Below are positions 2,524-44,146 of a DNA stretch of 64,000 nucleotides, piece by piece. The DNA is taken from the IMG/VR virus record IMGVR_UViG_3300023208_000003, positions 96,001-160,000 of that record; one strand, given 5' to 3'. Position numbers and translations under genes: made by a program. How positions within the stretch are numbered: the first letter of the stretch is position 1; every line of letters starts with the position of its first letter. The DNA comes from a virus. The notes beneath the pieces are model-generated. The model was not told the origin of the DNA. It saw nothing but the letters and a program-made list of their open reading frames with translations, and searched no databases.

Positions 2524-3045
2524 ATGAACCTCCTGCAAGAAATAGACCTCATCGCTGAGGAAACCAAAACCGAGAAAGACTTGGTAAAGATGTTCAAGGA
2601 CGCCAAAGACAGCGGCGCACTTAAGAACTATGTCCTTTCTGAAACCTATGACGTTCGTCCACTCAAGATAGACGAAGAAGTCAAAGTAAAATTCCCAGGA
2701 TTTACCTCTAAAACCGAAAAAGCGCAGGAAGGCGAGAGCTTGTTGCGTGTTCACGATAAACCAAATCTTCAACGCATTATTGATGAGGAAGAACTTGAAG
2801 ATAGTTACGCTCCTATTCGTCCAAATGAAAAACCAGATGCAGAAGGATTTACGCTTTATCGTAGCGTTAAAACACTTCAAGCTTTTCAATATACTGAGGA
2901 CCAACCTCTGGTCTTCCAGGGTAACGTAGGAGGCTCATTGCATGTTAAAATGAATGACTATATCGCTCGTGACGTAGCTAATCCCAAGAGAGTCCTAGTG
3001 TTTCCTGGTCCAAAGTTTGAAGACAAATATACTGAAACCAAATGA
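2524..3045 (+). CDS. hypothetical protein, probably late/virion-associated
   Basis: 173-aa ORF downstream of AATAAATAG (2488-2496). N-terminus MNLLQEIDLIAEE carries L/I-x-E motifs. Confidence 0.6.
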   Translation: MNLLQEIDLIAEETKTEKDLVKMFKDAKDSGALKNYVLSETYDVRPLKIDEEVKVKFPGFTSKTEKAQEGESLLRVHDKPNLQRIIDEEELEDSYAPIRPNEKPDAEGFTLYRSVKTLQAFQYTEDQPLVFQGNVGGSLHVKMNDYIARDVANPKRVLVFPGPKFEDKYTETK

Positions 3046-3692
3046 AAGTTCAAAAGCTAATTTCTGAGAGCCCTGGTTCTGGTTCTTTTACTATTATGTG
3101 CACTAAGCAAGTAAAAAGTAATGTTCAAATTGATATGTTTGAGCAAAATTTTAAATATCTTGCGTCACAAAATTTTAAAGATGAAACTGTTAGATTGGAT
3201 AGTTCCTCTGGTAGAATTAATGTCGGAATACAATTTAACAATTCTTCACGAACAATTTTTCCTAAAAAAGTAGCAGAAATAATTTTAAAATTTGTAACAA
3301 ATTATACTGGAAGTTCCGTGTTTCCACCAGTAAAAATGCATGTAAATTATCCAACGTTGATTTTGTTAGATTTTAGTGATCAAGATGATCGAATTGTTGA
3401 TCAAACAGTCGACAATGAACATTTAATGATTAATGGATTTACGCTCAAAGACATTCATAAACACATTAAAAATATTGATTCGATTTATTGTAATGATAAA
3501 ATCACAGATAGCGTTTTAGGTCTATTATTAATTGAACACAGTCTTCGTTGTTTTGAAGAAGTTGTAGGCGTTCCATCTTTAAATGAAGACTGGATGGAAA
3601 TAGTTAATAAACACTTAAGTGGCGATAAAGATGTTCTTGAATGTAAAACAGATTTAATTGAAAAAGGATTTCCAAAGTTGGCAAAAATATGA
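3042..3692 (+). CDS. YAKL-family paralogue 1
   Basis: N-term MKVQKLISE; C-term DSVLGLLLI...DKDVLECKTDLIEKGFPKLAKI*. Confidence 0.85.
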   Translation: MKVQKLISESPGSGSFTIMCTKQVKSNVQIDMFEQNFKYLASQNFKDETVRLDSSSGRINVGIQFNNSSRTIFPKKVAEIILKFVTNYTGSSVFPPVKMHVNYPTLILLDFSDQDDRIVDQTVDNEHLMINGFTLKDIHKHIKNIDSIYCNDKITDSVLGLLLIEHSLRCFEEVVGVPSLNEDWMEIVNKHLSGDKDVLECKTDLIEKGFPKLAKI

Positions 3693-4359
3693 AAGTCAAG
3701 CAACTTCTTCAAGAAGCTCAGCGTGGAATGTTTTACTTTACATTCAACTCAGCTCAGCTCAAACAACGTATGAAAATTCTCTCCTTCTGAAAGATGATTT
3801 ACAGGTTGCAGCAGAAAAGCTCGGTGCTGAAGTAGAGTTCATTGGACGTACTGAAGATGATGACGATGAAGGCAGACTCACGAGTAATTATGGGTTCAAG
3901 ATTTATCATCACTCAGGTGATCTTCACCCGAAACAACTTGGTATTGTTCTCAATAATCTTTATGTAAAATACACAAATGGAGATGTTGATGTAAGTAACA
4001 CAATGGTAACTCCAACAATGGGACTTCACTTGCCAGTCAATTTTCTTGTTGACTTTTCAGATGGCACAGCTACATTTGTAAATCAATTTATAAATCAATA
4101 TTTCGTAAATATTGCAGGAACCGATTTACATAATATTCACAAGCAAATTCAGCACATTGACGCAATATTTATAGATGATGATGTGAAATCGGGTGGGCTT
4201 GGACTTATGCTAGTTGAAGATTTAGTAAATGTTTCTGGGATAAAGCAAACACTTCAGTGGCGAAACATTATAACCAAGCATCTCAAAAATGAGCGCGATG
4301 TGCTTGATTGCAAAGCAGAGTTAATTGAGAAAGGGTATTCAACGCTCGCAAAACTATAA
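3689..4359 (+). pseudogene. YAKL-family paralogue 2, frameshifted near 3751-3760
   Basis: The ATGA-coupled start at 3689 (MKVKQLLQEAQ) stops at 3788-3790. The rest of the family gene (..DVLDCKAELIEKGYSTLAKL*) is in another frame. Removing one AGCTC copy at 3751-3760 restores the frame. Confidence 0.7.
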
Positions 4360-4371
4360 AAGAGAATTCAT

Positions 4372-4917
4372 ATGATAGAAGAAGAAAAAAAGAAAAGAAA
4401 GAATAGTAAAGCAAAAGGAAATGGCTTTGAAAGTAAAGTTGCAAAAATTTTAGCAGAGCACCTAGCGCCTTTAAAATTTATTCGTACCCAAAGTTCTGGA
4501 GCTCGTGTAGGTGGAAAAAACTTTGGAACAACTGGACAGCTTTTTAATCAACAGACACTTTCGCTTTTCGTGGGTGATGTGGTTGCCACAAATGATGGCG
4601 AAGACGGTCACTGGTTTAGGTTTGTAGTTGAATGCAAATTTTATAAGGAACCTGATACATTAGATCAGCTGCTTACTCGTAAAGCAAAGGTATTTGGCTG
4701 GCTGAATGAAGTTGATGTTGATAAAGTAAAGGTTGGTAAAGAAGGAATTGTCATAATGAAGTTTAATGGAAAAGATCCATTGATAGCCGTTAGACCTGAA
4801 ATTGAGCTACCTTTTAAGAATTACTTAACAATTGGGAATGCAAAGATTGGTTATCTTGCAGACGCACTAGAACACCCGGAATTCTGGTTAAAAAATGAAA
4901 ATACAACAGCTACTTGA
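4372..4917 (+). CDS. putative Holliday junction resolvase, PD-(D/E)xK family
   Basis: NSKAKGNGFESKVAKIL, SGA..G, GDVV, VVECKFYK pattern typical of phage resolvases. Confidence 0.7.
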   Translation: MIEEEKKKRKNSKAKGNGFESKVAKILAEHLAPLKFIRTQSSGARVGGKNFGTTGQLFNQQTLSLFVGDVVATNDGEDGHWFRFVVECKFYKEPDTLDQLLTRKAKVFGWLNEVDVDKVKVGKEGIVIMKFNGKDPLIAVRPEIELPFKNYLTIGNAKIGYLADALEHPEFWLKNENTTAT

Positions 4918-5567
4918 AAATCAAGAAGTTAAATCTCACTTTACAATGCATGAGATTTATCCTGAAATGTCAAAAATAAAAAGTGAGTTTGTAAATATGC
5001 CACAAGGTAAAATTTCAAAATTAATTGAAAAGAAACTCAAACTATTAAAGACGAAATATGGATTTGACGCTATTCCGACAGCTTTTTTTTAAAACTCATT
5101 CTAATGACTTTTTTTTTGGAGAGTATGGAATTACGTTTACTTTCAGTGACAGAACAGCAACAATTGATCTTACAAAACTTAGAAATGAAACCAATTTAAC
5201 TTTAGGACTATCTTCTAGAAAAAATAATTACACTACGCTCGAATTTAATTGTCCACTAAGTTTAACATTCAAAACTGATAAATCATTTAGTGAAGCATTA
5301 TGCGAATTCGCAGCAAACGGAAAAACTCTGCAGAATATTCATAAAATTATTCCTGACGTTTATAGTTTACGTGTAGTTGATACAATTGAAAGCAACGTGT
5401 TAGGGCTTGTTTTAATGAAAAAATTAGAAGCTGGGTTTATTGATTTTGGAGCATCAAATAAAGATTGGTCATTAATAGTCTGTCGTTATCTTCACAGCAA
5501 TCGTGACCTGCTTGAATGCAAAACTGAGTTAATTGAAAAAGGATTTGGAGCTTACGCAAAGCTATGA
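4895..5567 (+). pseudogene. YAKL-family paralogue 3, frameshifted at T8 tract 5083-5090
   Basis: The MKIQQLLENQE ORF stops at TAA 5090-5092 immediately after GCTTTTTTTT. The +1 frame continues to DLLECKTELIEKGFGAYAKL*. T7 would give one ORF. Confidence 0.72.
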
Positions 5568-6325
5568 AAATAAATCAATTATTTGAAGAAGTTAATCACT
5601 ACGCCACCATTCGCTTTCGTCTGAGTCCCTTTGTGGTTGATGATGAAACTGGCGAGCTTTTACCGATTAAGCGCTGGCAAAAAGACGGGGTTGACGCCTT
5701 TAACGTCGACAGTGATGCTTGGAAAGAAACACTGCAGTTGGTTAAAAACGCTAATGTTGATGGTTTAAAAATGTTCAGAATGTCTGCCCAATCAAGAAAT
5801 AATAGTGATCTTGGGTATGATTTTATTTTTTACGTGACAAAAGCAATCAACGTTGATCAAGCGCTTTTAGAGCTTCACAGTAAGATCGCTTATTACGATT
5901 CTCATTCGGAACCTAAGAAAGGGAGTGCGATGTATGTGAACTCCATCGTCTTTATTTCTCCTATTCCAGCTGGTCTTACCTTTGATGAGGAAAAAACTCG
6001 AGACTTGCAGAAGTGGAACTGGGACGGTATTGCGCTTGGCGGAAGAAGTGCTTCTGCTGCGCAAAATGAGCTTTCACTTGCAAATATCAAACACATCAAG
6101 TGCTTCAATTTATTTTTGTTCGGTAAGGTAGTAAGTAACGCGTTAGGCATTTTGCTAAATCCTACAATACGAACGCTAACTTCAGCATCAGGATTTAAAT
6201 CGCCTAATCAAGTATGGAATCCTTGGATCCCAATAGTCACTAAGCATTTAGATGGCGATAAAGACATTCTTGAGTGTAAAACAGATTTGATAGAAGCTGG
6301 TTACAAGGAACTCGCGAAAATCTAA
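5564..6325 (+). CDS. YAKL-family paralogue 4
   Basis: MKINQLFEE...DKDILECKTDLIEAGYKELAKI*; ATGA overlap with previous gene. Confidence 0.85.
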   Translation: MKINQLFEEVNHYATIRFRLSPFVVDDETGELLPIKRWQKDGVDAFNVDSDAWKETLQLVKNANVDGLKMFRMSAQSRNNSDLGYDFIFYVTKAINVDQALLELHSKIAYYDSHSEPKKGSAMYVNSIVFISPIPAGLTFDEEKTRDLQKWNWDGIALGGRSASAAQNELSLANIKHIKCFNLFLFGKVVSNALGILLNPTIRTLTSASGFKSPNQVWNPWIPIVTKHLDGDKDILECKTDLIEAGYKELAKI

Positions 6326-6326
6326 A

Positions 6327-6356
6327 TTGTACTTTTTCTTACTTTGATGTTATAAT
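6327..6356 (+). promoter_or_regulatory. sigma70-like (early/middle) promoter TTGTAC-N18-TATAAT with extended TG
   Basis: The same motif recurs at 8360-8388, 9049-9078, 58469-58497 and 59942-59970, with 17-18 nt spacers. Confidence 0.65.
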
Positions 6357-6378
6357 TTGCATTAAAATAGGGTGATTT

Positions 6379-7038
6379 ATGTCTGCTGAAGCTCCATTAC
6401 TTGGTTACGGTGCGCGCTACGCCGTAATGATAAAAAATCCGTATGAAAAAAACCCGGAACAGTTTTTATCCAAAATCTTCAAGCAGCTTGAAGTAAACGT
6501 TACTGCTGCACTTCAAGATTATCCTATCTATTCAATCAGTTTCAATGTTGAAACTGCCGGCAAATTCGTTTCATTAATAATTTTCTTTGACGATGCAGCT
6601 TTTACTATTGATATTGAAAAGCTGCACGCAACTATTTTAGATAACCTCAAAGCTTTAAATTTAAAAGTAGCAAATTCTGATAAATACTACGGAATGACGA
6701 ACTTGTATTTGCCTACAAGCATTTCAATATTTGTTTCAGATAAGATCTTTGAAACTGATAATGGAATAGTGCTGGTTTCTGGCAGGTCCCTTAGTGGAGT
6801 TCATAAACAGCTGATAAATGTCAATTGTATTATCTTACAAGACACAATCAAATCAAACATTTTAGGATTGCTTTTGATTGATAATTTAGTAGAACTTAAC
6901 TTTACAAGTAAAGAAGTTCGAGAAAGCAATCGTACTTGGACAGAGCCTTACAAGCTGGCTAGATTGGAAAAAATGGATTTGCTCGAGTTTAAAGCGATGC
7001 TCATTGAAAATGGATTATCACAATACGCGAAACTATGA
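6379..7038 (+). CDS. YAKL-family paralogue 5 (no capsid-targeting-like N-terminus)
   Basis: SLSGVHKQL...SNILGLLLI...MDLLEFKAMLIENGLSQYAKL*. Confidence 0.85.
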   Translation: MSAEAPLLGYGARYAVMIKNPYEKNPEQFLSKIFKQLEVNVTAALQDYPIYSISFNVETAGKFVSLIIFFDDAAFTIDIEKLHATILDNLKALNLKVANSDKYYGMTNLYLPTSISIFVSDKIFETDNGIVLVSGRSLSGVHKQLINVNCIILQDTIKSNILGLLLIDNLVELNFTSKEVRESNRTWTEPYKLARLEKMDLLEFKAMLIENGLSQYAKL

Positions 7039-7697
7039 AAGTACAAACATTATTAAAAGAAAACACTAATTTTGAAGGGTTTAAATACAGCTTCAGAGTG
7101 TCTGAAGAATGGCCTAGTCAGCCCCAAGATAAAGAAAAAAATATCAGTAACAGTGTTAATAGCGTAATTAAAGAACTTTATTCATTGTCGTTTTCAATAA
7201 AAGAAATTCTTTTTAATTTTGATGGAACCGAGAGAAAATTCAAAATTGAGTTTAAAGATGTTTCAGAAGTTGTTAACTTAGGTCATTTTCACGATGAAAT
7301 CAAAAAAATACTTAAGAACAATAATTTAATATTTACCATGAGTGATGAATATATTGCTAATATGACAATGATGTTTCCAGGCAAAATCGGTGTTCGTATT
7401 AGCGCATTTCAGAGAAATAACGGGTGGGCTACAGTCGTCGTATACGGTAATTCATTAAAAGATGTTCATAAAAGAATTCTTAATGCTGAAGAGCTCGTTA
7501 TTCAAAATGAAATTAACTCAAGTGTCTTAGGACTTATCTTAATGTCTGGAACGTCTATACGTTTTAGATCAAATCAAATCATTGAAGATAATCCTTGGCT
7601 TGATTTATATGTTGAAGCAATGGAGCAAAAAATGGACGTGCTTGAGTTCAAAGCGATGCTCATTGAAAATGGAATGTCACATCTGGCAAAATTATGA
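7035..7697 (+). CDS. YAKL-family paralogue 6
   Basis: MKVQTLLKE...MDVLEFKAMLIENGMSHLAKL*. Shares 24 identical nt with paralogue 5 (6991-7014 = 7650-7673). Confidence 0.85.
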   Translation: MKVQTLLKENTNFEGFKYSFRVSEEWPSQPQDKEKNISNSVNSVIKELYSLSFSIKEILFNFDGTERKFKIEFKDVSEVVNLGHFHDEIKKILKNNNLIFTMSDEYIANMTMMFPGKIGVRISAFQRNNGWATVVVYGNSLKDVHKRILNAEELVIQNEINSSVLGLILMSGTSIRFRSNQIIEDNPWLDLYVEAMEQKMDVLEFKAMLIENGMSHLAKL

Positions 7698-8359
7698 AAG
7701 TTCAAACATTACTAGAAAGTGAAGAAAGTTTACTAACCACTCCAGGCTACGCGTATGTCACATACATCTGTTCTAGTGAGTACCCAAAGGGGCTAAAAGA
7801 AATTATTGAAGAGCTCAAACATAAGATACCTTGTACAAAATTTGTAGAAAATAAAGATAGCTACATTAATGCAGAAGAAGGTGTTGAAACGTGTAAGCTT
7901 ATCTTTCACTTTGCTTCAGGTAATGTTAGTATCAAACAACTACAAACTGACATTCGAAAGATTGTTTTCAATAAATTTGATTGGAATTTCATTAGAGGGT
8001 TTGGTAGAATTGGACTTTCTTATATTAATTTTCCAACTAGTGTAGTTGTAAATTCCGATTACATTGAAATTGATGACAATGAAAACATTGATTATGCAAC
8101 TTCTTCAACTACTCTCAAAAATATTCACAAGTCAATAAAAGGAGAAATCACGTTTCTAGAACTTCATAGAGAGATTGAAGACTCAGTTTTAGGCTTATGT
8201 CTTTTAGAACACCGTGACTTTAAAATTATGTCATCAAGTTCAAAAGTAGCCGGCACAAACGTATCTTGGGTTAAGCTTTACAGAGAACATAAAGATGATC
8301 TTCTAGAGTTTAAAACTGCTCTCATTGAAGCTGGACTTCCACATCTCGCAAAAATTTAA
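7694..8359 (+). CDS. YAKL-family paralogue 7
   Basis: MKVQTLLESE...DDLLEFKTALIEAGLPHLAKI*. Confidence 0.85.
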   Translation: MKVQTLLESEESLLTTPGYAYVTYICSSEYPKGLKEIIEELKHKIPCTKFVENKDSYINAEEGVETCKLIFHFASGNVSIKQLQTDIRKIVFNKFDWNFIRGFGRIGLSYINFPTSVVVNSDYIEIDDNENIDYATSSTTLKNIHKSIKGEITFLELHREIEDSVLGLCLLEHRDFKIMSSSSKVAGTNVSWVKLYREHKDDLLEFKTALIEAGLPHLAKI

Positions 8360-8388
8360 TTGTACCTTTTTTACGCTTATGTTATAAT
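8360..8388 (+). promoter_or_regulatory. sigma70-like promoter TTGTAC-N17-TATAAT
   Basis: TTGTAC 8360-8365 and TATAAT 8383-8388, preceded by TGT; immediately upstream of ATG 8395. Confidence 0.6.
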
Positions 8389-8394
8389 AGTAAT

Positions 8395-8985
8395 ATGAGC
8401 GTAAAACTTAAGTTAACATTTTCAGCAAATGTAGATTTTTACCCATCATATACGGTAAAAATCGCGGCGGCGCTTCTTAAAGAGTTTAATGTTTCGCCTG
8501 ATCTTTGGATTTATGGTAACGCAAATTTAAATCTTGACGTTACATTCACCGATGTGCAAACTGTTAACATCAGTGAGCTAATTCATAATTATAAAAGATG
8601 TATTTTAAAAGCATTAAATCCACCAGCATCATCTTATTTAGTCTTAACCGTGATCGCGCGTAGTATCGAACTTCATGTTCCTAGCGTTACAAAAATCATA
8701 ATGGATGATAAACTTTCTGCTGGGCACAATCTTTTAAAGCTGTTTGGCACTGACTTTCATAACCTTCAAAAGGTTGCCGATCTCAACTCAACGATAGTCG
8801 TTGACATCAAGGATCACGTTAAGGCTAACGTTCTATCAATGTGTCTTCTTTCAAATTGCATGTTTAAAGTTGAAAATATTGAAAATTTAAAATGGCTTAA
8901 TTTATTTTATGATACTGATAGAGATTTATTAGCATTTAAAGCTGCTTTAATTGAGAATGGATTTTCACAATTGGCAAAAATATGA
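8395..8985 (+). CDS. YAKL-family paralogue 8 (no capsid-targeting-like N-terminus)
   Basis: ANVLSMCLL...DRDLLAFKAALIENGFSQLAKI*. Confidence 0.82.
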   Translation: MSVKLKLTFSANVDFYPSYTVKIAAALLKEFNVSPDLWIYGNANLNLDVTFTDVQTVNISELIHNYKRCILKALNPPASSYLVLTVIARSIELHVPSVTKIIMDDKLSAGHNLLKLFGTDFHNLQKVADLNSTIVVDIKDHVKANVLSMCLLSNCMFKVENIENLKWLNLFYDTDRDLLAFKAALIENGFSQLAKI

Positions 8986-10570: not shown

Positions 10571-10706
10571 TTAACAAAATAGATAAATTATCAAAAGAGC
10601 TTTGTTTAAATTAACCATTTTATTGGTTAGGCTTAAAAATTTGATATACTTCAAAAATCCTCAATCTTTCTGATAAATAAGTCATCACCTTTATCAGATT
10701 GTCTTA

Positions 10707-11375
10707 ATGAAAACATTCAAGCGCTTTCTAACAGAAGCACCCAAAATTTATAATTCAGATCGTCATTATCCAAACGAGGATTCTGAAGATCTAATCATAA
10801 AAGGTAATATTGAAGATAGTCCTGTTATTGATTTTAGTGACTGGGTAGAGTACGATGAGCAGTATAGTCCAGGCTGTATTGTAGAAGGAAATGTTACTGT
10901 CAGTAAAATTGATTCATTTAAAACTTGTGTTGGCGCTCCAAGTAAAATTAAAAAAACTTTAACAATTCAATATTGCAAAAATTTTATTTCATTAAAAGGG
11001 TTACCTGAAAAGATCGGCGGAAATCTTTATGGATTAAACATTCGTGGTTGTACTGCGTTGACAACTTTAGAGTATTGTCCAAAACAACTTGGCGCTTATT
11101 TTAACCTTGACGGTTGTACGAGTTTAATTAGCTTGAAGTATATGCCGAAGAAAATGGATGGAGATCTGTTTTTAACGGATTGCAAAAATTTAAAAAACAT
11201 TCTTCACGTTTTTCTAACCATTGGTATTGATGAAATTCATTACGATGCTAATCAATCTAATCTAGAACAAGCGCTTTATATTATTTGTGATCATTACTTT
11301 AAAAAAGATAGGGATTTACTTGAGTGCAAAGCTGAATTGATAGAAAGAGGATTATCAGAATATGCAAAGCTTTAA
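10707..11375 (+). CDS. YAKL-family paralogue 9, LRR-rich
   Basis: MKTFKRFLTEA. About 23-aa repeats (L.I..C..L.SL.G.P..I). DRDLLECKAELIERGLSEYAKL*. GATAAATA at 10672. Confidence 0.88.
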   Translation: MKTFKRFLTEAPKIYNSDRHYPNEDSEDLIIKGNIEDSPVIDFSDWVEYDEQYSPGCIVEGNVTVSKIDSFKTCVGAPSKIKKTLTIQYCKNFISLKGLPEKIGGNLYGLNIRGCTALTTLEYCPKQLGAYFNLDGCTSLISLKYMPKKMDGDLFLTDCKNLKNILHVFLTIGIDEIHYDANQSNLEQALYIICDHYFKKDRDLLECKAELIERGLSEYAKL

Positions 11376-18650: not shown

Positions 18651-19262
18651 ATGGCAAAAGAAATTTTGATTGAAAACATTTCGCCAATTCAGGCAAATTT
18701 AGTTGAATCAATTGATACTGAAAAAAATTATTTTTTGACAGGTATTTCAATGCAGGCCAATATTCGTAATGGCAATAATCGCATTTATCCACTTGAAGAA
18801 ATCTCACGTGAAGTTCAACGAGTACAAGAAAATTTAAAAAAAGGAAGCTATGTGCTTGGAGAACTTAATCATCCAGATACCTTAGCAATCAATCCATACA
18901 ATGCGTCTCACGCAATTATGGAAATTAACATGGATGGTGAAAATGCTGTTAGTAAGATGAAACTTCTTGATACCCCTGCTGGTAATATTGCACGTGCAAT
19001 TTTAGAAGGCGGTGTTCGCTTAGGTGTTTCATCTCGTGGTGCCGGTAATGTTGGAAATGATGGAAGCGTTTCTGATTTTCAACTTGTAACAATTGACATT
19101 GTTCATCAACCATCAGCACCTAACGCATATCCAAATTTTGTTCGTGAAGCTCAAGAGAACACAAAGATTGTAACTCTTGCTGAGTCTGTTGTTCACGATA
19201 AAGCTGCTCAAAAATATTTAGCAGCGGAGATGAAAAAATTTATCAAAAGCATTTTGAATTAA
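18651..19262 (+). CDS. gp21: prohead protease (T4 gp21-like)
   Basis: N.N.RIYP, LGELNHP, ASH, GVSSRG.G, DIV..PSAP.A. Confidence 0.93.
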   Translation: MAKEILIENISPIQANLVESIDTEKNYFLTGISMQANIRNGNNRIYPLEEISREVQRVQENLKKGSYVLGELNHPDTLAINPYNASHAIMEINMDGENAVSKMKLLDTPAGNIARAILEGGVRLGVSSRGAGNVGNDGSVSDFQLVTIDIVHQPSAPNAYPNFVREAQENTKIVTLAESVVHDKAAQKYLAAEMKKFIKSILN

Positions 19263-19595: not shown

Positions 19596-20495
19596 ATGGA
19601 TGAAATCCTTAATAAATTATTGGAATCCGAGTTGCTAAGCGACGAAACGAAGACTGAAGTTTCAACTCTCTGGAACTCTGCCGTATCAAAGAAAATGGCA
19701 GAAATTAAAGAAGAAGTTGAATTGGAAGTTCGCGCAGAACTCGCCGAGCAATGGACAAAAGACCGTGAAGCCTTCATTACGAAGGTTGATACATTTGTAA
19801 CCGAGCAGCTTACTACTGAACTTGCAGACTTACGTGGCGATATTGAGCGCTTCCGTGATCTAGAGGTTGAGTACAGCGAGCGTCTCGTAGAAGAAAAGAA
19901 GAAAATTGCAGAAGAAGTTGCAAAAGAAATGGATACTCTTGTTGACAAGATTGATGCATTCTTTGAGCTTCGTATTGCAGAAGAGATGGCTGAATTCAAG
20001 GAAGACCTTGAAATCGTTAAGCAGAACGAGTTTGGTCGTAAAGTATTTGAGGCATTTGCTTCAGAGTACGCGAACTCCCACGTTGATGAAGAAAGCAACT
20101 CTACTAAGCTTTCAATTGCTGAAAGCAAAGTTGCTGATCTTACCAAGCGCCTAGCGGCACTTGAAACTGAAAAGAACAAAATGATTCGTGAATCTAAAAT
20201 GGCTGAAGTTCTTAAGCCACTTTCTGGCGAAAAACGTGAGTCAATGGCATTCATCCTCCAAAACGTTGAGACCAACAAACTTGAAGAAGCTTACAAGCAC
20301 TTCATTGGTCGCATCTTAAAGGAAGAAAAGCCTGCTTCTGAAAAGAAGGAAGAGGTTCTTAAAGAGTCAACCACTAAAGTTGTAACTGGCGAAGAGAAGA
20401 ATGCAGAAATCATCAAAGAAGAAAAATCTGCAGCAGCTCCAGCCTCCAGCAGCAATCTTGATAGTATCAGACGCTTAGCTGGTATCAAGAAATAA
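19596..20495 (+). CDS. gp22: prohead scaffold/core protein (T4 gp22-like)
   Basis: Glu/Lys-rich coiled coil directly upstream of MCP. Confidence 0.8.
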   Translation: MDEILNKLLESELLSDETKTEVSTLWNSAVSKKMAEIKEEVELEVRAELAEQWTKDREAFITKVDTFVTEQLTTELADLRGDIERFRDLEVEYSERLVEEKKKIAEEVAKEMDTLVDKIDAFFELRIAEEMAEFKEDLEIVKQNEFGRKVFEAFASEYANSHVDEESNSTKLSIAESKVADLTKRLAALETEKNKMIRESKMAEVLKPLSGEKRESMAFILQNVETNKLEEAYKHFIGRILKEEKPASEKKEEVLKESTTKVVTGEEKNAEIIKEEKSAAAPASSSNLDSIRRLAGIKK

Positions 20496-20520: not shown

Positions 20521-21747
20521 ATGGAACTATTTGAAAATTGGCAAGAAACTAAAGAAGTATTGCTTGAAGGCGTACCTGAGCACAAGAAGAGCTATGTTGC
20601 TTCTGTAATGGAAACTCAGAAAAAGTACCTTACTGAAACTGCTGCCGCTACTGCCAGCAACTCAACCGCTATCAGCAATTTCCAGAAGATCGTCATTCCG
20701 ATGATCCGCCGTATTATCCCAGCAACTATTGCTACTGAACTCGTTGGTATTCAGCCAATGCCTGGTCCAGTATCTTTGGTTTATTCATTACGTTTCCTCT
20801 TTTCTGAGAACGTAACAACCGTACCAGCACAGACACCATCTGAAGACATCGTTGGTCTTTCTACTGAAGTTTTCTCAAACAACAGTAAGACAAAACGTTG
20901 GTATTCTACTTCTAATGTCTCTGCACCGAGCGGTGGCCCAGCAGCTGCTACTTCAGCAGGTGAAGCTGCTCTTACCTCTGATTACGAAAGTTTCGGCGGT
21001 CGTGCAATGCAGCTCGAAGTTCTTAAGCAGACTGTAACTGCTGGTTCACGTAAGTTACAAGCTAAGTGGACTATCGAAGCTATGCAGGATCTTTCTGCGC
21101 AGCACGGTCTTGATCTTGAAGCTGAAATTACTGCAGCTCTTTCTGCAGAAATCGTATCTGAAATTGATAACGAAATCATCAACAACCTTATCCAGCTTGC
21201 TGGTACTTCCGACAGCTTTGATATGTCTGGTACTTTTACTGGCGTACCTAACTACGTTGGTGATCGTCACGCAGTTCTTGGTGTATTGATTAACAAGGTT
21301 GCTAATGAGATTGGACGTAAGACACGTCGTGGTCCTGCTAACTGGATCGTTGTTTCCCCACTTGTTGTTTCTATCCTCCAGTCAGCTGCTAAGTCTGTCT
21401 TTGCTCCTGCTGTTTCTGGTTCTTTTGAAGGTCCAAACAACACCAAGTTGGTTGGTACTTTGAATGGAAATATCAAGGTTTACACCTACTTGTACCATGA
21501 CACTGGCGTTGAGCCAATTCTTCTTGGTTACAAGGGTGGTAATGGTGAGTTGGATGCAGGTTATTTTTACTGCCCATACATCCCATTGATGGCTTCTCAG
21601 GTTATTACTGATCCATCTACCTACAACCCACAAATCAGCTTAATGACCCGTTACGGAAAAGCAACTTTCCTTAACAGCACAACAAGCCTTGGGAACTCAG
21701 CCGACTACTACGGAAAAATCACTGTTTCGAATTTGACTTTCCTCTAA
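20521..21747 (+). CDS. gp23: major capsid protein (T4 gp23-like)
   Basis: IPMIRR..P..IA.ELVGIQPM.GP, RKLQAKWT.EA.QDL.A.HG.D.EAE, FYCPYIPL, MTRYG. Probable gp21 cleavage site at YLTE/T. Confidence 0.96.
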   Translation: MELFENWQETKEVLLEGVPEHKKSYVASVMETQKKYLTETAAATASNSTAISNFQKIVIPMIRRIIPATIATELVGIQPMPGPVSLVYSLRFLFSENVTTVPAQTPSEDIVGLSTEVFSNNSKTKRWYSTSNVSAPSGGPAAATSAGEAALTSDYESFGGRAMQLEVLKQTVTAGSRKLQAKWTIEAMQDLSAQHGLDLEAEITAALSAEIVSEIDNEIINNLIQLAGTSDSFDMSGTFTGVPNYVGDRHAVLGVLINKVANEIGRKTRRGPANWIVVSPLVVSILQSAAKSVFAPAVSGSFEGPNNTKLVGTLNGNIKVYTYLYHDTGVEPILLGYKGGNGELDAGYFYCPYIPLMASQVITDPSTYNPQISLMTRYGKATFLNSTTSLGNSADYYGKITVSNLTFL

Positions 21748-25866: not shown

Positions 25867-27639
25867 ATGGCAGAACCTACATCTTACGTTCCATCACAAC
25901 TTTGCATTGGACAGTGGCGTCTTCAAGACAATGCTGGTTGTAACAACGATTCTTCAACTCTTGAACAATACGTAGCTGAATCAATTGAGATAGCTGGTGC
26001 TCCAATGAATGTCTTTAAATTGCTAGGCGTTCACGAGCAAGGTCGTCTAATGGATTTAACTGGTTTTGGAACACCACTTTCGAGCGGCTCTTTAGCTGGT
26101 TCTGACGTAACAAACGCGTTTGATATTTCAGCTGATAGCTGGAAATCCGCGCAAGTAGGGTCTGCTGTAGTTGCAACTCCTGCTTGGATTGGTTACTTTT
26201 TTGGAACAAAAAAGACTAGCTTTGGAATGGATAAGTATAAACCTTCCAGCCCAATTCTTCAGCATATAACAACACTTAAAATTCAACAAGGCCCGAATAT
26301 TCAAAATCGCGCTTTACAAGTGCGTGTTGATCGTTCGGATGGAAAGCTTGATGCGAGACTCGTCTCACAATTTATTACGAGCGCAGCTGTTTTATCTAAC
26401 ATAAGGGCCGCGCAAACTGCAAAGTGGGGAACTGTTTACGTTACTGCAACAAGTTCTACTCAAATTTCTGTTTCTGGCCCTTCTGGAATCGAAACAGGGA
26501 CGATCGGTTCTTTTAAAGGCACTGACGTTCTATTTGACCTTCAAGGTCCAATGAATACCGGTGATATTTTTAGAATTGAACTAGACGTGAGGTGGAAACG
26601 TGCAGACATTATCAACCTTCCTAATACTAGCAATCTTGAACAAATTGCCATCAGACAGACCGCCCCATCCTCGTACTGGCGCATCGTCCCACTTATCTTT
26701 AATGGTGGAGCGACCGATTCGTGGGAAATTGTCAAGCTCGAACTCATTGATTTTCAATCGACCTCAATTGACAATATTGAAGATACCTTATTTCTCGAGA
26801 ATCGAGACAGAGATTATTCAAATACGTCAATTGAACTCAAGGCCCAATATCAACCAGTAGATTCAATTGGAGATTTAGGTAAATTTGGTTTTAATTTATT
26901 AGATCAATATGCTTTTAGTGTTTCATTTAGTCGAATGGTTGAGCTTCTTGGTAGGCCTATTGTTGTCGGTGACGTTATTGAAGTTACACCTGAGCTTGCC
27001 TATGATCAAAATTTAAAACCGATCAAGAAATTTTTAGAGGTAATCGACGCCTCATGGGCAGCTGAAGGATTTACCCCCGGCTGGAAGCCATTGATCTATA
27101 GATTTACAGCAGTCCCGCTTTTGCCATCGCAAGAACATCGTGATCTATTTGGAACGCCTGATGAGCAGCTTTACAAAGTTGACGATGGAACCTTTTTTAA
27201 CAACATTGGTCAACATCAAAACGCTCAACTAACTGTTGCTGAAGACGCGGCAACAGTTGCGCTTGACCAGGTTCCAGAGATAGGAGCTGACCCACAGGAA
27301 ATTGCTAGTGGTGCTCCACTCCTTAATAACGTAAACAAACTTGGTGAAAGAACTGACCAGCAAGATATGTATGTTCAGGACGCTATTCCACCTGATGGTT
27401 TACCTTACAAAGAGGGGTATACGTTTCCTGACGCAAATACCGCGTTGGACGGAGATTATTTCCGGCAAATTTATCCGCCTGACACCAGAATACCCGCTAG
27501 ACTGTACAAATTTAATGCAATCAAGCACCGCTGGATCTACCAGGAGACTGATATGCGTGATAGCTATAGTAGCCATAAGCCATCCATCCGCAGTGCCCTG
27601 GTGTCATTAGGGTCTAAGAGTTTAAAGAGTGACCTATGA
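25867..27639 (+). CDS. neck/head-closure protein (T4 gp14-like) with inserted domains
   Basis: ESIEIAG....FK.LG; LFLENRDR.Y; KFG....DQ..F.VSF..M...LGRPI.VGDVI; follows gp13-like gene. Confidence 0.72.
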   Translation: MAEPTSYVPSQLCIGQWRLQDNAGCNNDSSTLEQYVAESIEIAGAPMNVFKLLGVHEQGRLMDLTGFGTPLSSGSLAGSDVTNAFDISADSWKSAQVGSAVVATPAWIGYFFGTKKTSFGMDKYKPSSPILQHITTLKIQQGPNIQNRALQVRVDRSDGKLDARLVSQFITSAAVLSNIRAAQTAKWGTVYVTATSSTQISVSGPSGIETGTIGSFKGTDVLFDLQGPMNTGDIFRIELDVRWKRADIINLPNTSNLEQIAIRQTAPSSYWRIVPLIFNGGATDSWEIVKLELIDFQSTSIDNIEDTLFLENRDRDYSNTSIELKAQYQPVDSIGDLGKFGFNLLDQYAFSVSFSRMVELLGRPIVVGDVIEVTPELAYDQNLKPIKKFLEVIDASWAAEGFTPGWKPLIYRFTAVPLLPSQEHRDLFGTPDEQLYKVDDGTFFNNIGQHQNAQLTVAEDAATVALDQVPEIGADPQEIASGAPLLNNVNKLGERTDQQDMYVQDAIPPDGLPYKEGYTFPDANTALDGDYFRQIYPPDTRIPARLYKFNAIKHRWIYQETDMRDSYSSHKPSIRSALVSLGSKSLKSDL

Positions 27640-28361
27640 GATTTAAACAATTTTTAACAGAAGCCAAAATTCCAGAATTTGTAATACCTGCATTCTTTTG
27701 GTTTTCAGATGATTTTGCTAATTCAGTTTCAATGACGTTAAATTCAGCCATAGAAATATGGATGTCTGAAGACTCAATACAGAAGTTAATGATGCTAGTC
27801 AGAGGAGGCGTAACGCTAAAATGTACAAATTATGAACGTCAAACTAAAGCAGCTGTTAAAAATGGTTGGACGCTATTTGAAGAAGAGCACAATTTTGATA
27901 GTTATGAAGGAATACTTTATAAGAAGAGTCAAGAAATTCAATATCCTAAACTTTACTATTATCAATCTCAAAATTTATCAAAAATTCCAGCTGGTATGAA
28001 TATGGACGCAACTATAGTTGCAAATTTGGCGTTTAATAATTTATCTGACTTTGAAAACTTGCCGCATAATACTGCGCATTGTTTCTTAAATTCTAACAAA
28101 TATACATCACTCTCAGGAATACATAAGCAACTTAAGGATTGTTATCAACTTGATATTGAAAAGAACCCGATTAAAGAATCTGTTTTAGGATTGCTCTTAA
28201 TTAAAGGACTTTATGATTTTTCATTTGAAGGAGTTCCAGCAAAAGCTTATGACGCAATTTACTTAATTATGAAACATCATAGACATGAAGAAGCTGGAGA
28301 TGTTCTCGAAGCAAAAGCAGAACTAATAGAAAAAGGATTTAGCCAGTATGCGAAGCTTTAA
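27636..28361 (+). CDS. YAKL-family paralogue 12
   Basis: MRFKQFLTEA; YTSLSGIHKQL; ESVLGLLLI; GDVLEAKAELIEKGFSQYAKL*. Confidence 0.88.
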   Translation: MRFKQFLTEAKIPEFVIPAFFWFSDDFANSVSMTLNSAIEIWMSEDSIQKLMMLVRGGVTLKCTNYERQTKAAVKNGWTLFEEEHNFDSYEGILYKKSQEIQYPKLYYYQSQNLSKIPAGMNMDATIVANLAFNNLSDFENLPHNTAHCFLNSNKYTSLSGIHKQLKDCYQLDIEKNPIKESVLGLLLIKGLYDFSFEGVPAKAYDAIYLIMKHHRHEEAGDVLEAKAELIEKGFSQYAKL

Positions 28362-28920
28362 GCAATTTATACGTGAAAATATCGACGGCGTAAAAAATGG
28401 AATCTGGTGTACCTCACCACCAGAAAATCCTCTTGAGTATAATGCTACAGATTTAAGAACAATTTTAGATTTCAATAATTATGAAGAAGACCATCTTTAT
28501 AATGATGTTGAATTTGCGTTCTACAAAAAGCTAAATACTCTTGAAGGCTGTCCTGAAAAAGTTATTAATTATTTTTATCTAAACTTTTTACCTGAACTTA
28601 AAACGCTTGAGTATGCTCCTAAATTTGTCGGAAATTCAGCTTATCTTTCATCATTAGATCTTTCAACGTTGTCTGGCATTGGTAAGCGCTTTTTCAATGA
28701 AATTAAAGTTATGCTTTCATTTGATAATTGCACAATTGATTCATCTATTTTAGGGCTCTTATTGATTAAGGGGCTTTCATCCTGTGTTTCAGTTTTTAAT
28801 GGCGGTAAAGATTTAGAACGTGCGATAATCGTAATCAACAACCACTTACCTGATCGTGATATTTTAGAAGCAAAAACAGAACTTATCGAACTTGGATATT
28901 CACGATACGCAAAGCTATGA
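28348..28920 (+). CDS. YAKL-family paralogue 13
   Basis: MRSFKQFIRE; LNTLEGCP/LKTLEYAP repeats; DRDILEAKTELIELGYSRYAKL*. Confidence 0.88.
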   Translation: MRSFKQFIRENIDGVKNGIWCTSPPENPLEYNATDLRTILDFNNYEEDHLYNDVEFAFYKKLNTLEGCPEKVINYFYLNFLPELKTLEYAPKFVGNSAYLSSLDLSTLSGIGKRFFNEIKVMLSFDNCTIDSSILGLLLIKGLSSCVSVFNGGKDLERAIIVINNHLPDRDILEAKTELIELGYSRYAKL

Positions 28921-29573
28921 AACTATTAGAAATTACATCTCCTACATACAAACACTCAGATGTTGAATTAGCTTTTTACACAGCCGATGTTAAACGCTTG
29001 TATCAACTTGTGGATGCTGTTACAAAAGAAAAAATAATTAAAGAGATGCTTGATGTTAAAAAATACGGGGTTTATTTTTTAGGCGAAGATTATCATAATG
29101 AAGCATGCTCGATCTTTTACTCATTTGGGTGTGAGGATCCAATATCTTCAGCCGGGGTTAAAGAAATTTATCGCAGTGTTGAAAAAATATTTGAATCTTA
29201 CGGAATTAACACAGAAGAATTATTGGCCGGTCTCAATTTTTATAAAATGCCTGATAAAGTTTGGGTTAAAAGTGATCATTCTTCTCCAAATTTTTATCTT
29301 TCAGCAAATGAAGAATTTACCAGCTTATGTGGAATTTCCAAAAAGATTAAATATGAAGTTGTTGATGATATTGACATTGAGCACGTAGAACGCATCACAG
29401 AAGGTGGTCTAGGATTTTTATTAATTGATAATCTTAGAACAATTTATACTCTTCCTGCAAAAAAAATATTATGGCTGAGCATTATAAATGAGCATCTTAA
29501 AGGAGAACGAGATATTCTTGAATGTAAAACCGCTCTTATTGAACAAGGACAAGGAGCTTTTGCTAAAATATGA
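28917..29573 (+). CDS. YAKL-family paralogue 14
   Basis: MKLLEITS; EGGLGFLLI; ERDILECKTALIEQGQGAFAKI*. Confidence 0.86.
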   Translation: MKLLEITSPTYKHSDVELAFYTADVKRLYQLVDAVTKEKIIKEMLDVKKYGVYFLGEDYHNEACSIFYSFGCEDPISSAGVKEIYRSVEKIFESYGINTEELLAGLNFYKMPDKVWVKSDHSSPNFYLSANEEFTSLCGISKKIKYEVVDDIDIEHVERITEGGLGFLLIDNLRTIYTLPAKKILWLSIINEHLKGERDILECKTALIEQGQGAFAKI

Positions 29574-34223: not shown

Positions 34224-36848
34224 ATGGCGACTCCTAAAACGAAAGATTTTAAACCATCTCCAGCCAATATTTCACAGCGCTTAGATCTTGTGCGTGACGT
34301 TATACGTAACGCAAAGATTAAATCTTCAGGCGACATTAAGCAGCACCCAAGCGTTATGCTCGCTGGTGATCCAGGTATTGGTAAAACTCAATTTTTAGAG
34401 CAGTTTGCTTCTCTTATGGGATTATCAGTTATTACCATTGAAGCGCCACACATTATTGAAGAGCACTTAATCAATATTCCTTACATCGTAACTGATACCA
34501 AGGGCAAGCAAACAGGCGGCGAAACAGAAGTTGTTGAGAAAAAATACTCAATTGAAATTGCTGACAGTAATCTTTATACTGCGTTGAATCGCGTTAGAAA
34601 GAATACTGACAAACAATATCTTTCTGACATTTATACCGATGCGGCTGACGATACTAAGGCAATTTTTGAGGAACTTGGTGGTAATGAAACTACTGTTCCA
34701 CCTGACATTGAAATTTTACGTAGCAAATATCGCGTAATTTTGTTCTTAGATGAATACTTTAGAACAACTGTTCCACGTATTCTCAAGATGCTTCGTGGTA
34801 TCTTGAACAACAAGCTTGGTCTTCACGATATTCCAAAAGACATTCTTATCATCTACGCATCAAATATCAGCGACGTTGGCGGAAGTCTTGCGAAAATTCC
34901 AAAGAACGCGCAGTTGCCTCCGATTGATTTCCCAGTTCCTACAAAGGACGAGTGGTTTAGCTGGCTTGTTTACAAATTCAAGCAAGAGCACCGCGGCGTA
35001 ACGCTTAAGAAAGAGGTCATCAACAAGTTTTACCACGCGCTAAATGACGAGCACATCAGCTACTTTGATCCAGCCTCTAAAGTTCGTACTTCACCTCGCC
35101 GCTGGGAACAGCTTTTGCTCTATGTGAATGAATCACTTCCTGTAAAGGATGAGCACGAAGCCCGTCAGCTCTTGACCAACGTTAAAGTGAATTTCAGAAA
35201 CTACGTCAAGGGTGGTCACTCTGAGCTTGTTGACACCGTAATGAAAGCAGTTTCTGAGCTTATCGAAGAAACGTCTCATTTTGACGTCGCAGCAAATAAC
35301 ACTCAGAGTGAGCACGACTGGCGTTCTACTCTTGAGCATCAGATCAAGCTAAAGATGAAGCTTGGTGATCATCGTAAGTATGTTCCAGTTATTGCTGGTG
35401 AACCTGGTATTGGTAAAACAACTCACATTCAACAAATCGCAGATGATCTTGACCTTCGTCTTATTGACTTTGAAGTTGATAAGTTCAACGCTGAAGACGC
35501 AACAGGTCTTGTAACTCCTCACAAGGAGAAAGGCAAGAAGATGGAGACGCGCTTCTCCACCCCAATGCTTTATCGTTTAATCACCGATAAGATTAAGAAA
35601 GAAGATGAGGAACACATTGCGCAGCTTAAAGCCGACGGAAAGACCAGAGAAGCAAAAGAATATCCAAACAAGCGTTGGAAGTATTTGATTTTCTTCGATG
35701 AGTTGAACCGCGCCAGTGATCCTAAAGTCTTCAACGCGCTGCGTCGCGTTCTTCTTGAGAAGAACTTTGGGCCTTCTGATGAAAGCAACGGTGAAGTTCT
35801 TAAGCTTCCAGAAGGGTCAATTATGGTTGCTGCCATTAACCCTGACCCAAAGGAAGAAGGTGTTATTGAATTTACTGATCACGTCAAAGACGTTCTTGAC
35901 ATTATTCCAGCAGCTCCAAACTGGAATAGCACTGTTCAGCATTTAGAAGATACGAAAGTTCCGTACGCAGAAGATAACGCGGCTCACACCACACTTGACG
36001 TCATTAAGAAGTTTGTTGATAAGTTTAAAACAAAGGAGCCATCAATTCAGGTTTCTGAACGTCCATTCTACATTAACATCGGTAAGAACATTTACGTACA
36101 ACCACGTGAATATAAGGCAATGTACCTTGAGGCGGCTGTTGCTCTCACTGAGGAGCTTCAACGTATTCGTAAGCACGATCTCAAGAAAGCAACAGCTGAC
36201 GAACTGAAAGAATATGAACAAGACGCGAAGTTGACGCTTTACAAGTCAATTCGTAGATTTTTACTTGGCTTGGCAGTTATTCGTAATAACATTAAGGGAA
36301 CTGAATTCTTTGAAGATTTGAAGACTTGGTTCTTACATTCACCAGAAATTGATATAGGTGAAGGTTTATTCTATCACGTTGGTTCAAAAGTTAAGCGTAC
36401 ATTCTTAGGTGTCTTCGACGATATCTTTGAAGGTAATTATGCAGAACATTTAGCTGACAATCAGGACTTTATTAACTATCTTGAAAACATAACTGGCGAT
36501 ATTACTAAATTTAAGGAAAGCTTGACAGAGTTTATCGAGAAGAAATTAAAAGACCCAGCTGATATTGAAAAGTACTTGACGAAGGATGATTACCCACTTA
36601 TTGTTCTTAAGGACGGTGAAATCAAAGAAGATAAAGGTAAAAAAGTTACGCTGCTTGCCAACTTAATGTCAGAAGCACGTATCGCGTTAATAATGCACGA
36701 GTATGACAACAGTATGGTTGAAGCTCTTGGTGTTGGTGTTCTAAAGGCTATAACAGCTTTCTTGAAGACACACAAGGATAAAGGCTTCTACCCACCAGAA
36801 GTAGCAGCTCAAATTTCTGAACTTTATGATACAGTGTTTGAGATTTAA
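34224..36848 (+). CDS. tandem AAA+ ATPase (two MoxR/dynein-related-like modules)
   Basis: Walker A GDPGIGKT and GEPGIGKT; Walker B LFLDEYFR and IFFDELNRA; sensor/Arg segments ASN, SPRRWE, AAINP, QPREY. Confidence 0.85.
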   Translation: MATPKTKDFKPSPANISQRLDLVRDVIRNAKIKSSGDIKQHPSVMLAGDPGIGKTQFLEQFASLMGLSVITIEAPHIIEEHLINIPYIVTDTKGKQTGGETEVVEKKYSIEIADSNLYTALNRVRKNTDKQYLSDIYTDAADDTKAIFEELGGNETTVPPDIEILRSKYRVILFLDEYFRTTVPRILKMLRGILNNKLGLHDIPKDILIIYASNISDVGGSLAKIPKNAQLPPIDFPVPTKDEWFSWLVYKFKQEHRGVTLKKEVINKFYHALNDEHISYFDPASKVRTSPRRWEQLLLYVNESLPVKDEHEARQLLTNVKVNFRNYVKGGHSELVDTVMKAVSELIEETSHFDVAANNTQSEHDWRSTLEHQIKLKMKLGDHRKYVPVIAGEPGIGKTTHIQQIADDLDLRLIDFEVDKFNAEDATGLVTPHKEKGKKMETRFSTPMLYRLITDKIKKEDEEHIAQLKADGKTREAKEYPNKRWKYLIFFDELNRASDPKVFNALRRVLLEKNFGPSDESNGEVLKLPEGSIMVAAINPDPKEEGVIEFTDHVKDVLDIIPAAPNWNSTVQHLEDTKVPYAEDNAAHTTLDVIKKFVDKFKTKEPSIQVSERPFYINIGKNIYVQPREYKAMYLEAAVALTEELQRIRKHDLKKATADELKEYEQDAKLTLYKSIRRFLLGLAVIRNNIKGTEFFEDLKTWFLHSPEIDIGEGLFYHVGSKVKRTFLGVFDDIFEGNYAEHLADNQDFINYLENITGDITKFKESLTEFIEKKLKDPADIEKYLTKDDYPLIVLKDGEIKEDKGKKVTLLANLMSEARIALIMHEYDNSMVEALGVGVLKAITAFLKTHKDKGFYPPEVAAQISELYDTVFEI

Positions 36849-38923: not shown

Positions 38924-39699
38924 AGACGTGGTTCAAGAAATTTATTAAGGAAGATTTTGAACCTAATCTTAAACCTTGGATGCTTCAAACGAAACCTGAG
39001 ATTGAGAAATGGTTGAAAGATAATAGAATTGATGGTTTGGTTTCAAAAGAACTGGAAGTTCATATTACGAGAGGGTCATTATCTTTTATATTTTTAGGCA
39101 ATAATGACTTTACTACGGACAACCAAGGCCGTCGCTGCTTGCCAGTGCAATTTTATATCGTAAAAGAATATGATATGGACGGTCCTGATCTTGAATCATT
39201 TGTCGGCAGTCCAATTGGTGTTTTTGAAAAAATGACATTTAATGATTTTTGCGGTGATAGCTGGGAAGGGTTTCCAAAGTTTTGTTCTGAACTTCGAGGT
39301 AATCCAGGAAAGATAACTTCATTCGAAGGTTTTCCTACTAATGGGGTAAAGTCTCTTAAACTTTTTAGTAAAAAAGATGAACCGCAAATTCCAACTTTAG
39401 AAGGACTTCCAGATAATATTAAAGAGTTTGCAACTGATTGCGTTGCAAGTTATTCAAAAATTGATAAAATTTTACCCAATTTAACTTTTGTAAATGTTCC
39501 AAAAACTCTAAAGGATTCAATTTTAGGAATTTTATTGTTAGAACACTTAAGTGACATTGGATATAATTCAAAAGGGGAAAGTAAGGCATGCCGCGCGGCA
39601 ACCATTGTAAATGACCATTACTTCTCGGGCGATCGTGACATTCTTGACTGTAAGTCAGAGTTAATTGAAAAAGGACTTTCTGAATATGCCAAGCTTTAA
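38920..39699 (+). CDS. YAKL-family paralogue 15
   Basis: MKTWFKKFIKE; SF.G.P repeats; DRDILDCKSELIEKGLSEYAKL*. Confidence 0.87.
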   Translation: MKTWFKKFIKEDFEPNLKPWMLQTKPEIEKWLKDNRIDGLVSKELEVHITRGSLSFIFLGNNDFTTDNQGRRCLPVQFYIVKEYDMDGPDLESFVGSPIGVFEKMTFNDFCGDSWEGFPKFCSELRGNPGKITSFEGFPTNGVKSLKLFSKKDEPQIPTLEGLPDNIKEFATDCVASYSKIDKILPNLTFVNVPKTLKDSILGILLLEHLSDIGYNSKGESKACRAATIVNDHYFSGDRDILDCKSELIEKGLSEYAKL

Positions 39700-43430: not shown

Positions 43431-43465
43431 AATAAATAAGAAAAACACAATTTGGAGCATATCAA

Positions 43466-44143: not shown

Positions 44144-44146
44144 ACA

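Follow-up and report, generated by a model that had tools for sequence, protein, structure and literature searches.

In bacteriophage T4, the first 10 residues of internal protein III (IPIII) are enough for incorporation into the head (Mullaney & Black, 1996, reviewed in PMC9026906). As summarized in that review, positions 4 and 7 control targeting and positions 8 and 10 control processing, and Asp at position 10 blocks processing and leaves targeting intact (PMC9026906). In the T4 record, IPII and IPIII both start MKTYQEFIAE↓A (arrows stand behind the Glu of a known or putative cleavage motif), IPI starts MKTFKEF, with ..ITE↓A reached at residue 19, the N-termini of gp24 and gp22 read MAKINELLRE↓S and MLKEQLIAE↓A, and gp23 contains ..GSFLTE↓AEIGG. 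In giant phages of the phiKZ type, as described for SPN3US and phiKZ, a gp21-related protease processes many head-internal proteins, some of them paralogous, and these proteins reach the host (PMC5694885, PMC10052503). Here, we describe a protein family encoded in a stretch of 64,000 nucleotides, referred to as the window (bases 96001–160000 of the 197-kb IMG/VR contig IMGVR_UViG_3300023208_000003, which CheckV rates 55% complete), in which most members start with a leader of 9–11 residues built like these T4 peptides. The source is an uncultured jumbo phage, a myophage of the T4 superfamily. We read the N-termini as T4-type capsid-targeting and processing leaders, with a probability of roughly 0.65, and the family proteins are probably varied cargo carried in the virus particle.

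A stop-to-stop open reading frame (ORF) scan keyed on ..LIE.G....AK(L/I) found 26 family genes on the + strand of the window, all ending in a constant module (consensus ..SL.GIHK.., ..LGLLLI.., ..D.LECKAELIE.GL..YAKL), and about 34 on the whole contig. Within the family, it is the two termini that are conserved; the N-terminal halves are hypervariable, and the mature proteins have masses of 21–37 kDa. The leaders were sorted into class 1, M-(K/R/Q/P)-x-F-K-x-(F/Y)-(L/I)-x-E, and class 2, M-K-(V/L/I)-x-x-L-x-x-E. Class 1 is found in 13 window members (those starting at 10707, 11362, 11987, 27636, 28348, 38920, 39686, 42774, 45123, 45736, 46400, 47073, and 51771) and class 2 in 11 (3042, 3689, 4895, 5564, 7035, 7694, 28917, 40330, 41271, 43466, and 44147). 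A first-pass annotation of this DNA had pointed to MKTFKRFLTEA at bases 10707–10739, the class-1 leader MKTFKRFLTE↓A of a 222-aa ORF (10707–11375, + strand), and to similar starts on most family members; both statements were borne out, since 24 of the 26 members carry a class-1 or class-2 start. All 13 class-1 leaders have F or W at the equivalent of position 4 and F or Y at the equivalent of position 7; (L/I)-x-E is present in nine, and a tenth, at 47073, reads F-L-A-D-E. In class 2, an aliphatic-x-Glu motif lies within residues 5–9 in 9/11 leaders, the exceptions being 28917 and 43466. Over the contig, the leader patterns occur on about 26 of the 34 family ORFs, compared to 4 of about 960 other ATG positions, counted as an ATG followed by 60 or more codons (Fisher P about 3e-40). 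Thus, the leader is confirmed as a real feature of the family, far beyond chance. A Sec or lipoprotein signal peptide was considered and excluded, the leader being 9–11 residues long, charged, and without a hydrophobic core.

Class-1 leaders keep exactly F4, F/Y7, L/I8, and E10, at the positions that act as determinants in IPIII. The structural module in the window comprises a baseplate hub, portal, gp21-type prohead protease, scaffold, and major capsid protein, with neck, head-closure, sheath-stabilizer, sheath, tube, and split terminase genes in addition. The protease, which the first-pass annotation had likewise proposed, lies at 18651..19262 (+; phrog_207, E 5e-54; 28% identity to T4 gp21), and its ELNHP and GVSSRG motifs align with those of T4 gp21. 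The gp22-like scaffold protein (19596..20495, +) starts MDEILNKLLE↓S, in the style of the class-2 leaders. In the major capsid protein (20521..21747, +), the sequence Y-L-T-E39, encoded at bases 20626–20637, was aligned by BLASTP with FLTE65 of T4 gp23. In T4, Glu65 of gp23 is the site cut by gp21. Because the capsid motif aligns with this site and a gp21-type protease is present, it is most likely, as judged from the sequences, that the leader ends in the motif used by the phage's own head maturation.

The capsid protein is closest to that of the Ralstonia jumbo phage RsoM2USA, the nearest relative in culture (61% identity), followed by those of XacN1, Xoo-sp13, GAP32, and CBB at 42–51% identity; at the DNA level, megablast with 10 kb from the window returned no match among cultured phages. 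RsoM2USA (MG752970.1) encodes four close family members, ORF61, ORF88, ORF89, and ORF90, all with the leader and with both classes represented, which its published annotation lists as hypothetical with 'no significant similarity' (PMC8504454). In the virion analysis reported there, the ten most abundant bands of purified virions in sodium dodecyl sulfate-polyacrylamide gel electrophoresis (SDS-PAGE) were identified by LC-MS/MS (liquid chromatography coupled to tandem mass spectrometry), and one of the ten is ORF89, at 28.57 kDa (PMC8504454). The protein with locus tag 89, of 28.56 kDa, begins with MKTFKQFLSE↓S and has the family module at its C-terminus. Two further proteins among the reported bands, ORF132 (MKTFKQFLNTLME↓A) and ORF438 (from its second Met, MLTFKQYAQPILTE↓G), have the same leader and are unrelated to the family. 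That these abundant bands include one member of the family and two unrelated proteins with its leader is a new finding. Class-1 starts are present in three of the ten bands, compared to about 13 of the 486 RsoM2USA ORFs (hypergeometric P = 0.0016). Since ORF89, ORF132, and ORF438 are all among the reported bands, the leader appears to mark virion proteins in this clade and to be portable between unrelated proteins, as is the T4 capsid-targeting sequence (CTS); this is the strongest support for our reading.

The RsoM2USA genome is like the window in having family members with both leaders and the module, and an AAA+ ATPase beside the cluster; it has only four close copies, as against about 34 on our contig. 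A homologue of ORF438 is encoded on our contig outside the window (39923–42196, +; 34% identity), where it starts MLPNSFFFLTE↓GIAHLEDL, so that the junction ..LTE↓GI.HLEDL is common to both phages. It contains a ligase-like K-x-D-G motif and is, by sequence, a candidate packaged nucleotidyl-transferase or ligase. The contig, which is incomplete, yielded no homologue of ORF132.

The leader recurs well beyond these two phages, in over 100 distantly related metagenomic proteins. At E <= 0.001, a profile of the 26 members matched 4,426 cluster representatives among 1.84 billion proteins; with the cutoff lowered to E <= 1e-10, 1,784 were left. The family thus comprises over 4,000 clusters when grouped at 50% identity and is unnamed, and we found no description of it in the literature. 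Both leader types and the ..YAKL end recur in the 121 best foreign representatives, all mutually less than 50% identical; (LIVFM)-x-E lies within the first 14 residues in 105/121, compared to 17 and 19 of 121 for control windows of the same size in the same proteins. Five IMG/VR fragments carry 4–13 family copies each; two of the five also have the head module, with proteases 51% and 62% identical to the one in the window. A word-index protein search with the 10707 protein returned only itself and one leucine-rich repeat (LRR) protein.

The genomic context suggests when the family is expressed. Family genes share start/stop overlaps with neck, sheath-stabilizer, head-closure, and tube-like genes. 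The first-pass annotation had placed ATAAATA late promoters before several clusters. This placement stood: of the 19 + strand copies, 16 fall within the 14.6% of the window that is free of + strand genes (P about 3e-11), and 11 are found 14–47 nt upstream of start codons. Neither TATAAATA nor ATAAATA occurs more often overall than expected by chance, and it is their position alone that is informative. One box (10673..10679, +) precedes the 10707 start by 28 nt, and others precede the starts at 2524, 13757, 19596, 24320, 30408, 43466, 47853, 50067, and 52493; the genes behind these boxes include the family members at 10707 and 43466 as well as those for scaffold, sheath, tube, and terminase. 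Immediately upstream of the window there is a weak gp55-like match. The family genes are likely late genes co-expressed with the structural genes.

To describe the proteins behind the leaders, structures were predicted with AlphaFold2 (AF2). For the 10707 protein, modelled from a 78-sequence alignment, AF2 predicts an LRR-like solenoid with a helical C-terminal cap, at a predicted local distance difference test score (pLDDT) above 90 from about residue 80; ahead of it are a lone helix at residues 4–9 (pLDDT 68) and a disordered linker at residues 12–35. Repeats of about 22 residues (L..L.L..N/C.L type) are visible in many members, and the beta-solenoid is predicted with high confidence. In the class-2 member at 7035, the leader has a pLDDT below 55, and an alpha/beta N-domain takes the place of the repeats in front of the same C-terminal module. 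On the strength of these two models, the leader would lie outside the predicted fold, and different domains can make up the variable half. Foldseek against PDB gave no match at E <= 0.001 and only weak LRR and receptor L-domain matches beyond that cutoff, and its top four matches in BFVD have the lengths of the four RsoM2USA paralogues. Eight members searched against Pfam and PHROGs gave no significant match and two sub-threshold ones, and the Pfam LRR models did not match the members searched. Because a variable N-terminal half, LRR or another domain, is set on a constant module (LRR cap and helical C-terminal part), the cargo would most likely consist of binders of host or phage targets.

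Compared to the T4 system of IPI, IPII, IPIII, and Alt, the family is alike in its leader of about 10 residues, with aromatics at 4 and 7 and (L/I)-x-E at 8–10, and MKTFK.F is nearly the start of IPI. The gp21-type protease, the gp22-like scaffold, and the gp23-like capsid protein with its aligned cleavage motif are shared as well, as are the probable late-gene context and the presence of the leader on unrelated, fast-diverging proteins. The differences are that T4 has three such genes whereas about 34 paralogues are arranged here in several arrays, that there are two leader classes, that family starts are dual-coded within the C-terminus of the preceding gene, and that the mature parts are mostly acidic, LRR-like proteins with a constant C-terminal module. 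Homology to the IP families was not found: the fold is LRR-like, Pfam and PHROGs gave no significant matches, and the proteins are mostly acidic and far larger than IPI (95 aa). The first-pass annotation, whose quoted N-termini of IPI, IPII, and IPIII agree with the T4 record, had described the family as an expanded analogue of the T4 IPI locus. This description is apt for the mechanism, as an analogy, but not for the proteins or their arrangement, since the mature proteins are unrelated to IPI, IPII, and IPIII and the genes are spread over several loci. By analogy, the family would work like the T4 CTS system, yet it is not a member of the IP families.

The class-2 leaders resemble the propeptides MAKINELLRE and MLKEQLIAE of T4 gp24 (vertex) and gp22 (scaffold), and the scaffold protein of the window has the same style; gp24 and gp22 are, however, shell and core proteins, which the family resembles in the leader only. 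The phiKZ-like ejection proteins differ more widely. They belong to another lineage with another cleavage motif, S/A/G-x-E for the phiKZ-like prohead protease, they often have long propeptides, and no family with this C-terminal module has been described among them.

The first-pass inference that the family is packaged in the head and co-injected with the DNA is partly supported by these results. Taken together with what is established for T4, a pathway can be proposed. Transcription of the family genes would be late and shared with the head and tail genes, with translation coupled between neighbours. The leader, as a short amphipathic helix with an aromatic or aliphatic residue at positions 4 and 7, would bring the protein into the scaffolding core of the prohead. 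The gp21-type protease would then cut after (L/I/F)-x-E, the equivalent of the step that releases cargo from the core in T4. The mature proteins would remain in the filled head and would most likely exit with the DNA.

Several observations weigh against this proposal. The family members at 6379 and 8395 have no leader. Of the motifs listed by the first-pass annotation, both classes are present, but the Glu is missing from three class-1 members (39686, 42774, and 45123), in which the F-K-x-F part is retained; by analogy with T4, such members might be loaded but uncut. The family is mostly acidic (median isoelectric point, pI, of 5.8), unlike T4 IPII and IPIII, which are basic, and its members are therefore not DNA counter-ions. 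Thirty-four paralogues would be a big load for a single head. The late promoter is read from a 7-mer only. On the side of the cultured relative, the RsoM2USA paper gives, in its treatment of the virion bands, band assignments and predicted masses only, and the masses given there for ORF438 and ORF257 do not fit the ORF lengths (PMC8504454); the start codon of ORF438 is uncertain. Finally, a 10-residue tag that suffices for loading would not explain why a C-terminal module of about 80 residues is conserved. Within the last 13 residues encoded by every family gene (e.g., bases 11334–11372 of the window), a near-invariant L-I-E is followed by x-G-L..YAKL. This L-I-E↓x-G matches the gp21-type cleavage motif and, by analogy with Alt as treated in the review (PMC9026906), may serve as a propeptide at the C-terminus or as a further targeting element.

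The alternative that survives best, and that we nevertheless regard as unlikely, is that the family proteins are virion components which are not injected, either as core or scaffold accessories that are degraded and expelled or as external LRR binders with the N-terminal helix used for docking. LRR proteins are typically surface binders, in keeping with the weak LRR and receptor L-domain matches, the family genes sit among neck, sheath, and tube genes, and the report of ORF89 in the RsoM2USA virion assigns it to no particular site within the particle. An accessory or external role fits less well with a leader that shares (L/I)-x-E with the capsid maturation site and keeps the residues that target T4 proteins to the core. 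That RsoM2USA virions contain a ligase-like protein and a 674-aa protein with the same leader is a better fit to cargo than to fibres, and no fibre, collar, or trimerization domains were found in the Pfam and PHROG searches with eight members.

Improbable, in our assessment, is the alternative that the N-terminal helix is an intrinsic part of the protein (a solenoid N-cap, or an oligomerization or partner-binding helix) and that the protein acts unpackaged in the infected cell. Conservation of both termini and the short helix predicted at residues 3–9 are compatible with such a role. In the AF2 model of the 10707 protein, however, the helix is unpacked and followed by a 24-residue disordered linker, ORF89 is reported from purified virions, and the leader is found on unrelated folds as well.

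The remaining question is whether the leader arises from constraints on the DNA. In eight window members, the start ATG lies within the Tyr codon of a preceding ..YAKL-stop, and the resulting 14-nt overlap TATGCNAAGCTTTAA fixes residues 1–5 as M-(Q/R/P/L)-(S/N)-F-K; the starts of class-2 members lie in ATGA overlaps. The gp4-like head-closure gene (42226..42777, +; phrog_218, E 2e-44) serves as a natural control: it is unrelated to the family and begins MPSFK through the same kind of YAKL-stop overlap, then continues ARYIPKN without F-L-x-E. Because this control shares only MPSFK, residues 1–5 can come from the overlap alone. In overlap-coded members, the overlap accounts for the first five residues but not for what follows in the leader. 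Residues 6–11 (x-F/Y-L/I-x-E-E/A) lie outside the overlap and are conserved in family members only. Inspection of the upstream DNA at 10707, 27636, 38920, 42774, and 51771 found a non-family gene or non-coding sequence in front of each class-1 leader, in agreement with the first-pass claims that these five lack an upstream YAKL gene and that the leader is not merely an outcome of overlap coding. The RsoM2USA gene ORF61 is a lone + strand gene amid − strand genes and starts (MA)MNFKEFLNE↓A. Synonymous codons differ for the F, K, and L of the leader. A DNA pattern scan of IMG/VR for the YAKL/MQSFK overlap gave 39 loci, about seven of them real family loci and the rest at chance level. Given the members without the overlap, the synonymous codons, the gp4-like control, and the 105/121 representatives, selection on the leader acts on the protein and not on the DNA. 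A leader produced merely by the YAKL-stop overlap, by translational coupling, or by a recombination site for cassette shuffling is therefore very improbable, since residues 6–11 are conserved beyond the overlap, members without an upstream family gene and single RsoM2USA genes on the opposite strand to their neighbours have the leader, codons vary, unrelated proteins share it, and representatives with mutual identities below 50% have retained it.

The family genes of the window, all on the + strand, form five arrays and one single gene. The first array (3042..8985) holds eight family genes, plus an unrelated gene at 4372–4917. In its first half the starts are MKVQKLISE (3042), MKVKQLLQE (3689, frameshifted), MKIQQLLENQE (4895, frameshifted), and MKINQLFEE (5564); in its second half 6379 has no leader, 7035 starts MKVQTLLKE, 7694 starts MKVQTLLESEE, and 8395 has no leader. 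The frameshifts at 3689–4359 and 4895–5567 follow soon after intact class-2 leaders, and the two genes could be pseudogenes, assembly errors, or programmed shifts. In the second array (10707–11375, 11362–12000, and 11987–12619), the leaders are MKTFKRFLTE, MQSFKSYLQE, and MQSFKSFLNE, the last two starting in the preceding YAKL-stop. The third (27636..29573) has three genes with MRFKQFLTE↓A, MRSFKQFIRE↓N, and MKLLEITS, and is flanked by a virion structural gene and a gp15/gp3-like sheath-stabilizer gene, with overlaps of start and stop codons on both sides. Four genes make up the fourth (38920..42239), with MKTWFKKFIKE, MPSFKTFIVND (no Glu), MKLTDILQE, and MKLNQLIRE↓S. The fifth (42774..47726) has seven, with MTSFKTYFKQDD (42774, no Glu), MRINDLVNE (43466), MKLIEITE (44147), MPNFKEFFKYN (45123, no Glu), MLSFRDYLKE (45736), MPRFKEFLKE (46400), and MRSFKQFLADE (47073). 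A lone gene (51771..52427) with the leader MQNKSLKQFLCE↓D stands behind two tail-tube-like genes.

Just upstream of a family-gene cluster, in both phages, is a gene for a double AAA+ ATPase. In the window this MoxR-like protein (34224..36848, +; 43% identity to RsoM2USA ORF86) precedes the 38920 array, with a gene at 36863–38923 listed together with it. ORF86 is itself among the virion-band proteins reported for RsoM2USA (PMC8504454), and the ATPase is a possible functional partner of the family. RsoM2USA also has, at about 57–58 kb and 190–211 kb, a second, more divergent set of proteins of about 200 aa with MKL.EI.. leaders and ..LI..GF..L. ends, which do not match the family profile; this phage may thus hold more than four relatives of the family. 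Unrelated ORFs with class-1 leaders are found in the same genome at 164–166 kb, 263 kb, and 271–274 kb. On our contig, outside the window (17732–18466, −), a non-family protein of 244 aa starts MITFRQFINDD, class-1-like without the Glu, and has a nucleotidyltransferase-like G-S...D-x-D motif. Between the protease and scaffold genes of the window lies an acidic 61-aa ORF (19289–19474), whose position suggests a possible counterpart of gp67 and gp68, the small core proteins of T4. Homing-endonuclease/HNH genes are set amid the structural genes at 32414–33967, 48413–49972 (−), and 53353–53967, and the large terminase is split, its N-terminal part lying at 52493–53356.

A wider scheme, which we offer as doubtful, is that this clade of jumbo phages in the T4 superfamily loads its heads with a large and rapidly diversifying repertoire of LRR-type binders, dozens of paralogues per genome, by means of two interchangeable leaders and delivers it with the DNA as a ready-made kit for counter-defence or takeover, with the C-terminal L-I-E↓x-G as a second protease site or targeting element, in the manner of the two propeptides of Alt, and the AAA+ ATPase helping to load or release the cargo. 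The reading of the N-termini as capsid-targeting and processing leaders can be tested now, as RsoM2USA is cultured and, by its reported bands, already has a family member and two further leader-bearing proteins in its virion. If true, this reading would give a name to a large unannotated protein family, would mean that virions of this clade each carry dozens of diversified binding proteins, and would provide a sequence rule for predicting injected proteins, and with them anti-defence candidates, in uncultured giant phages. Were the leaders to function like those of T4, the CTS mechanism would no longer be a curiosity of the T-even phages; it would serve distant jumbo relatives of T4 as a general and portable address tag.

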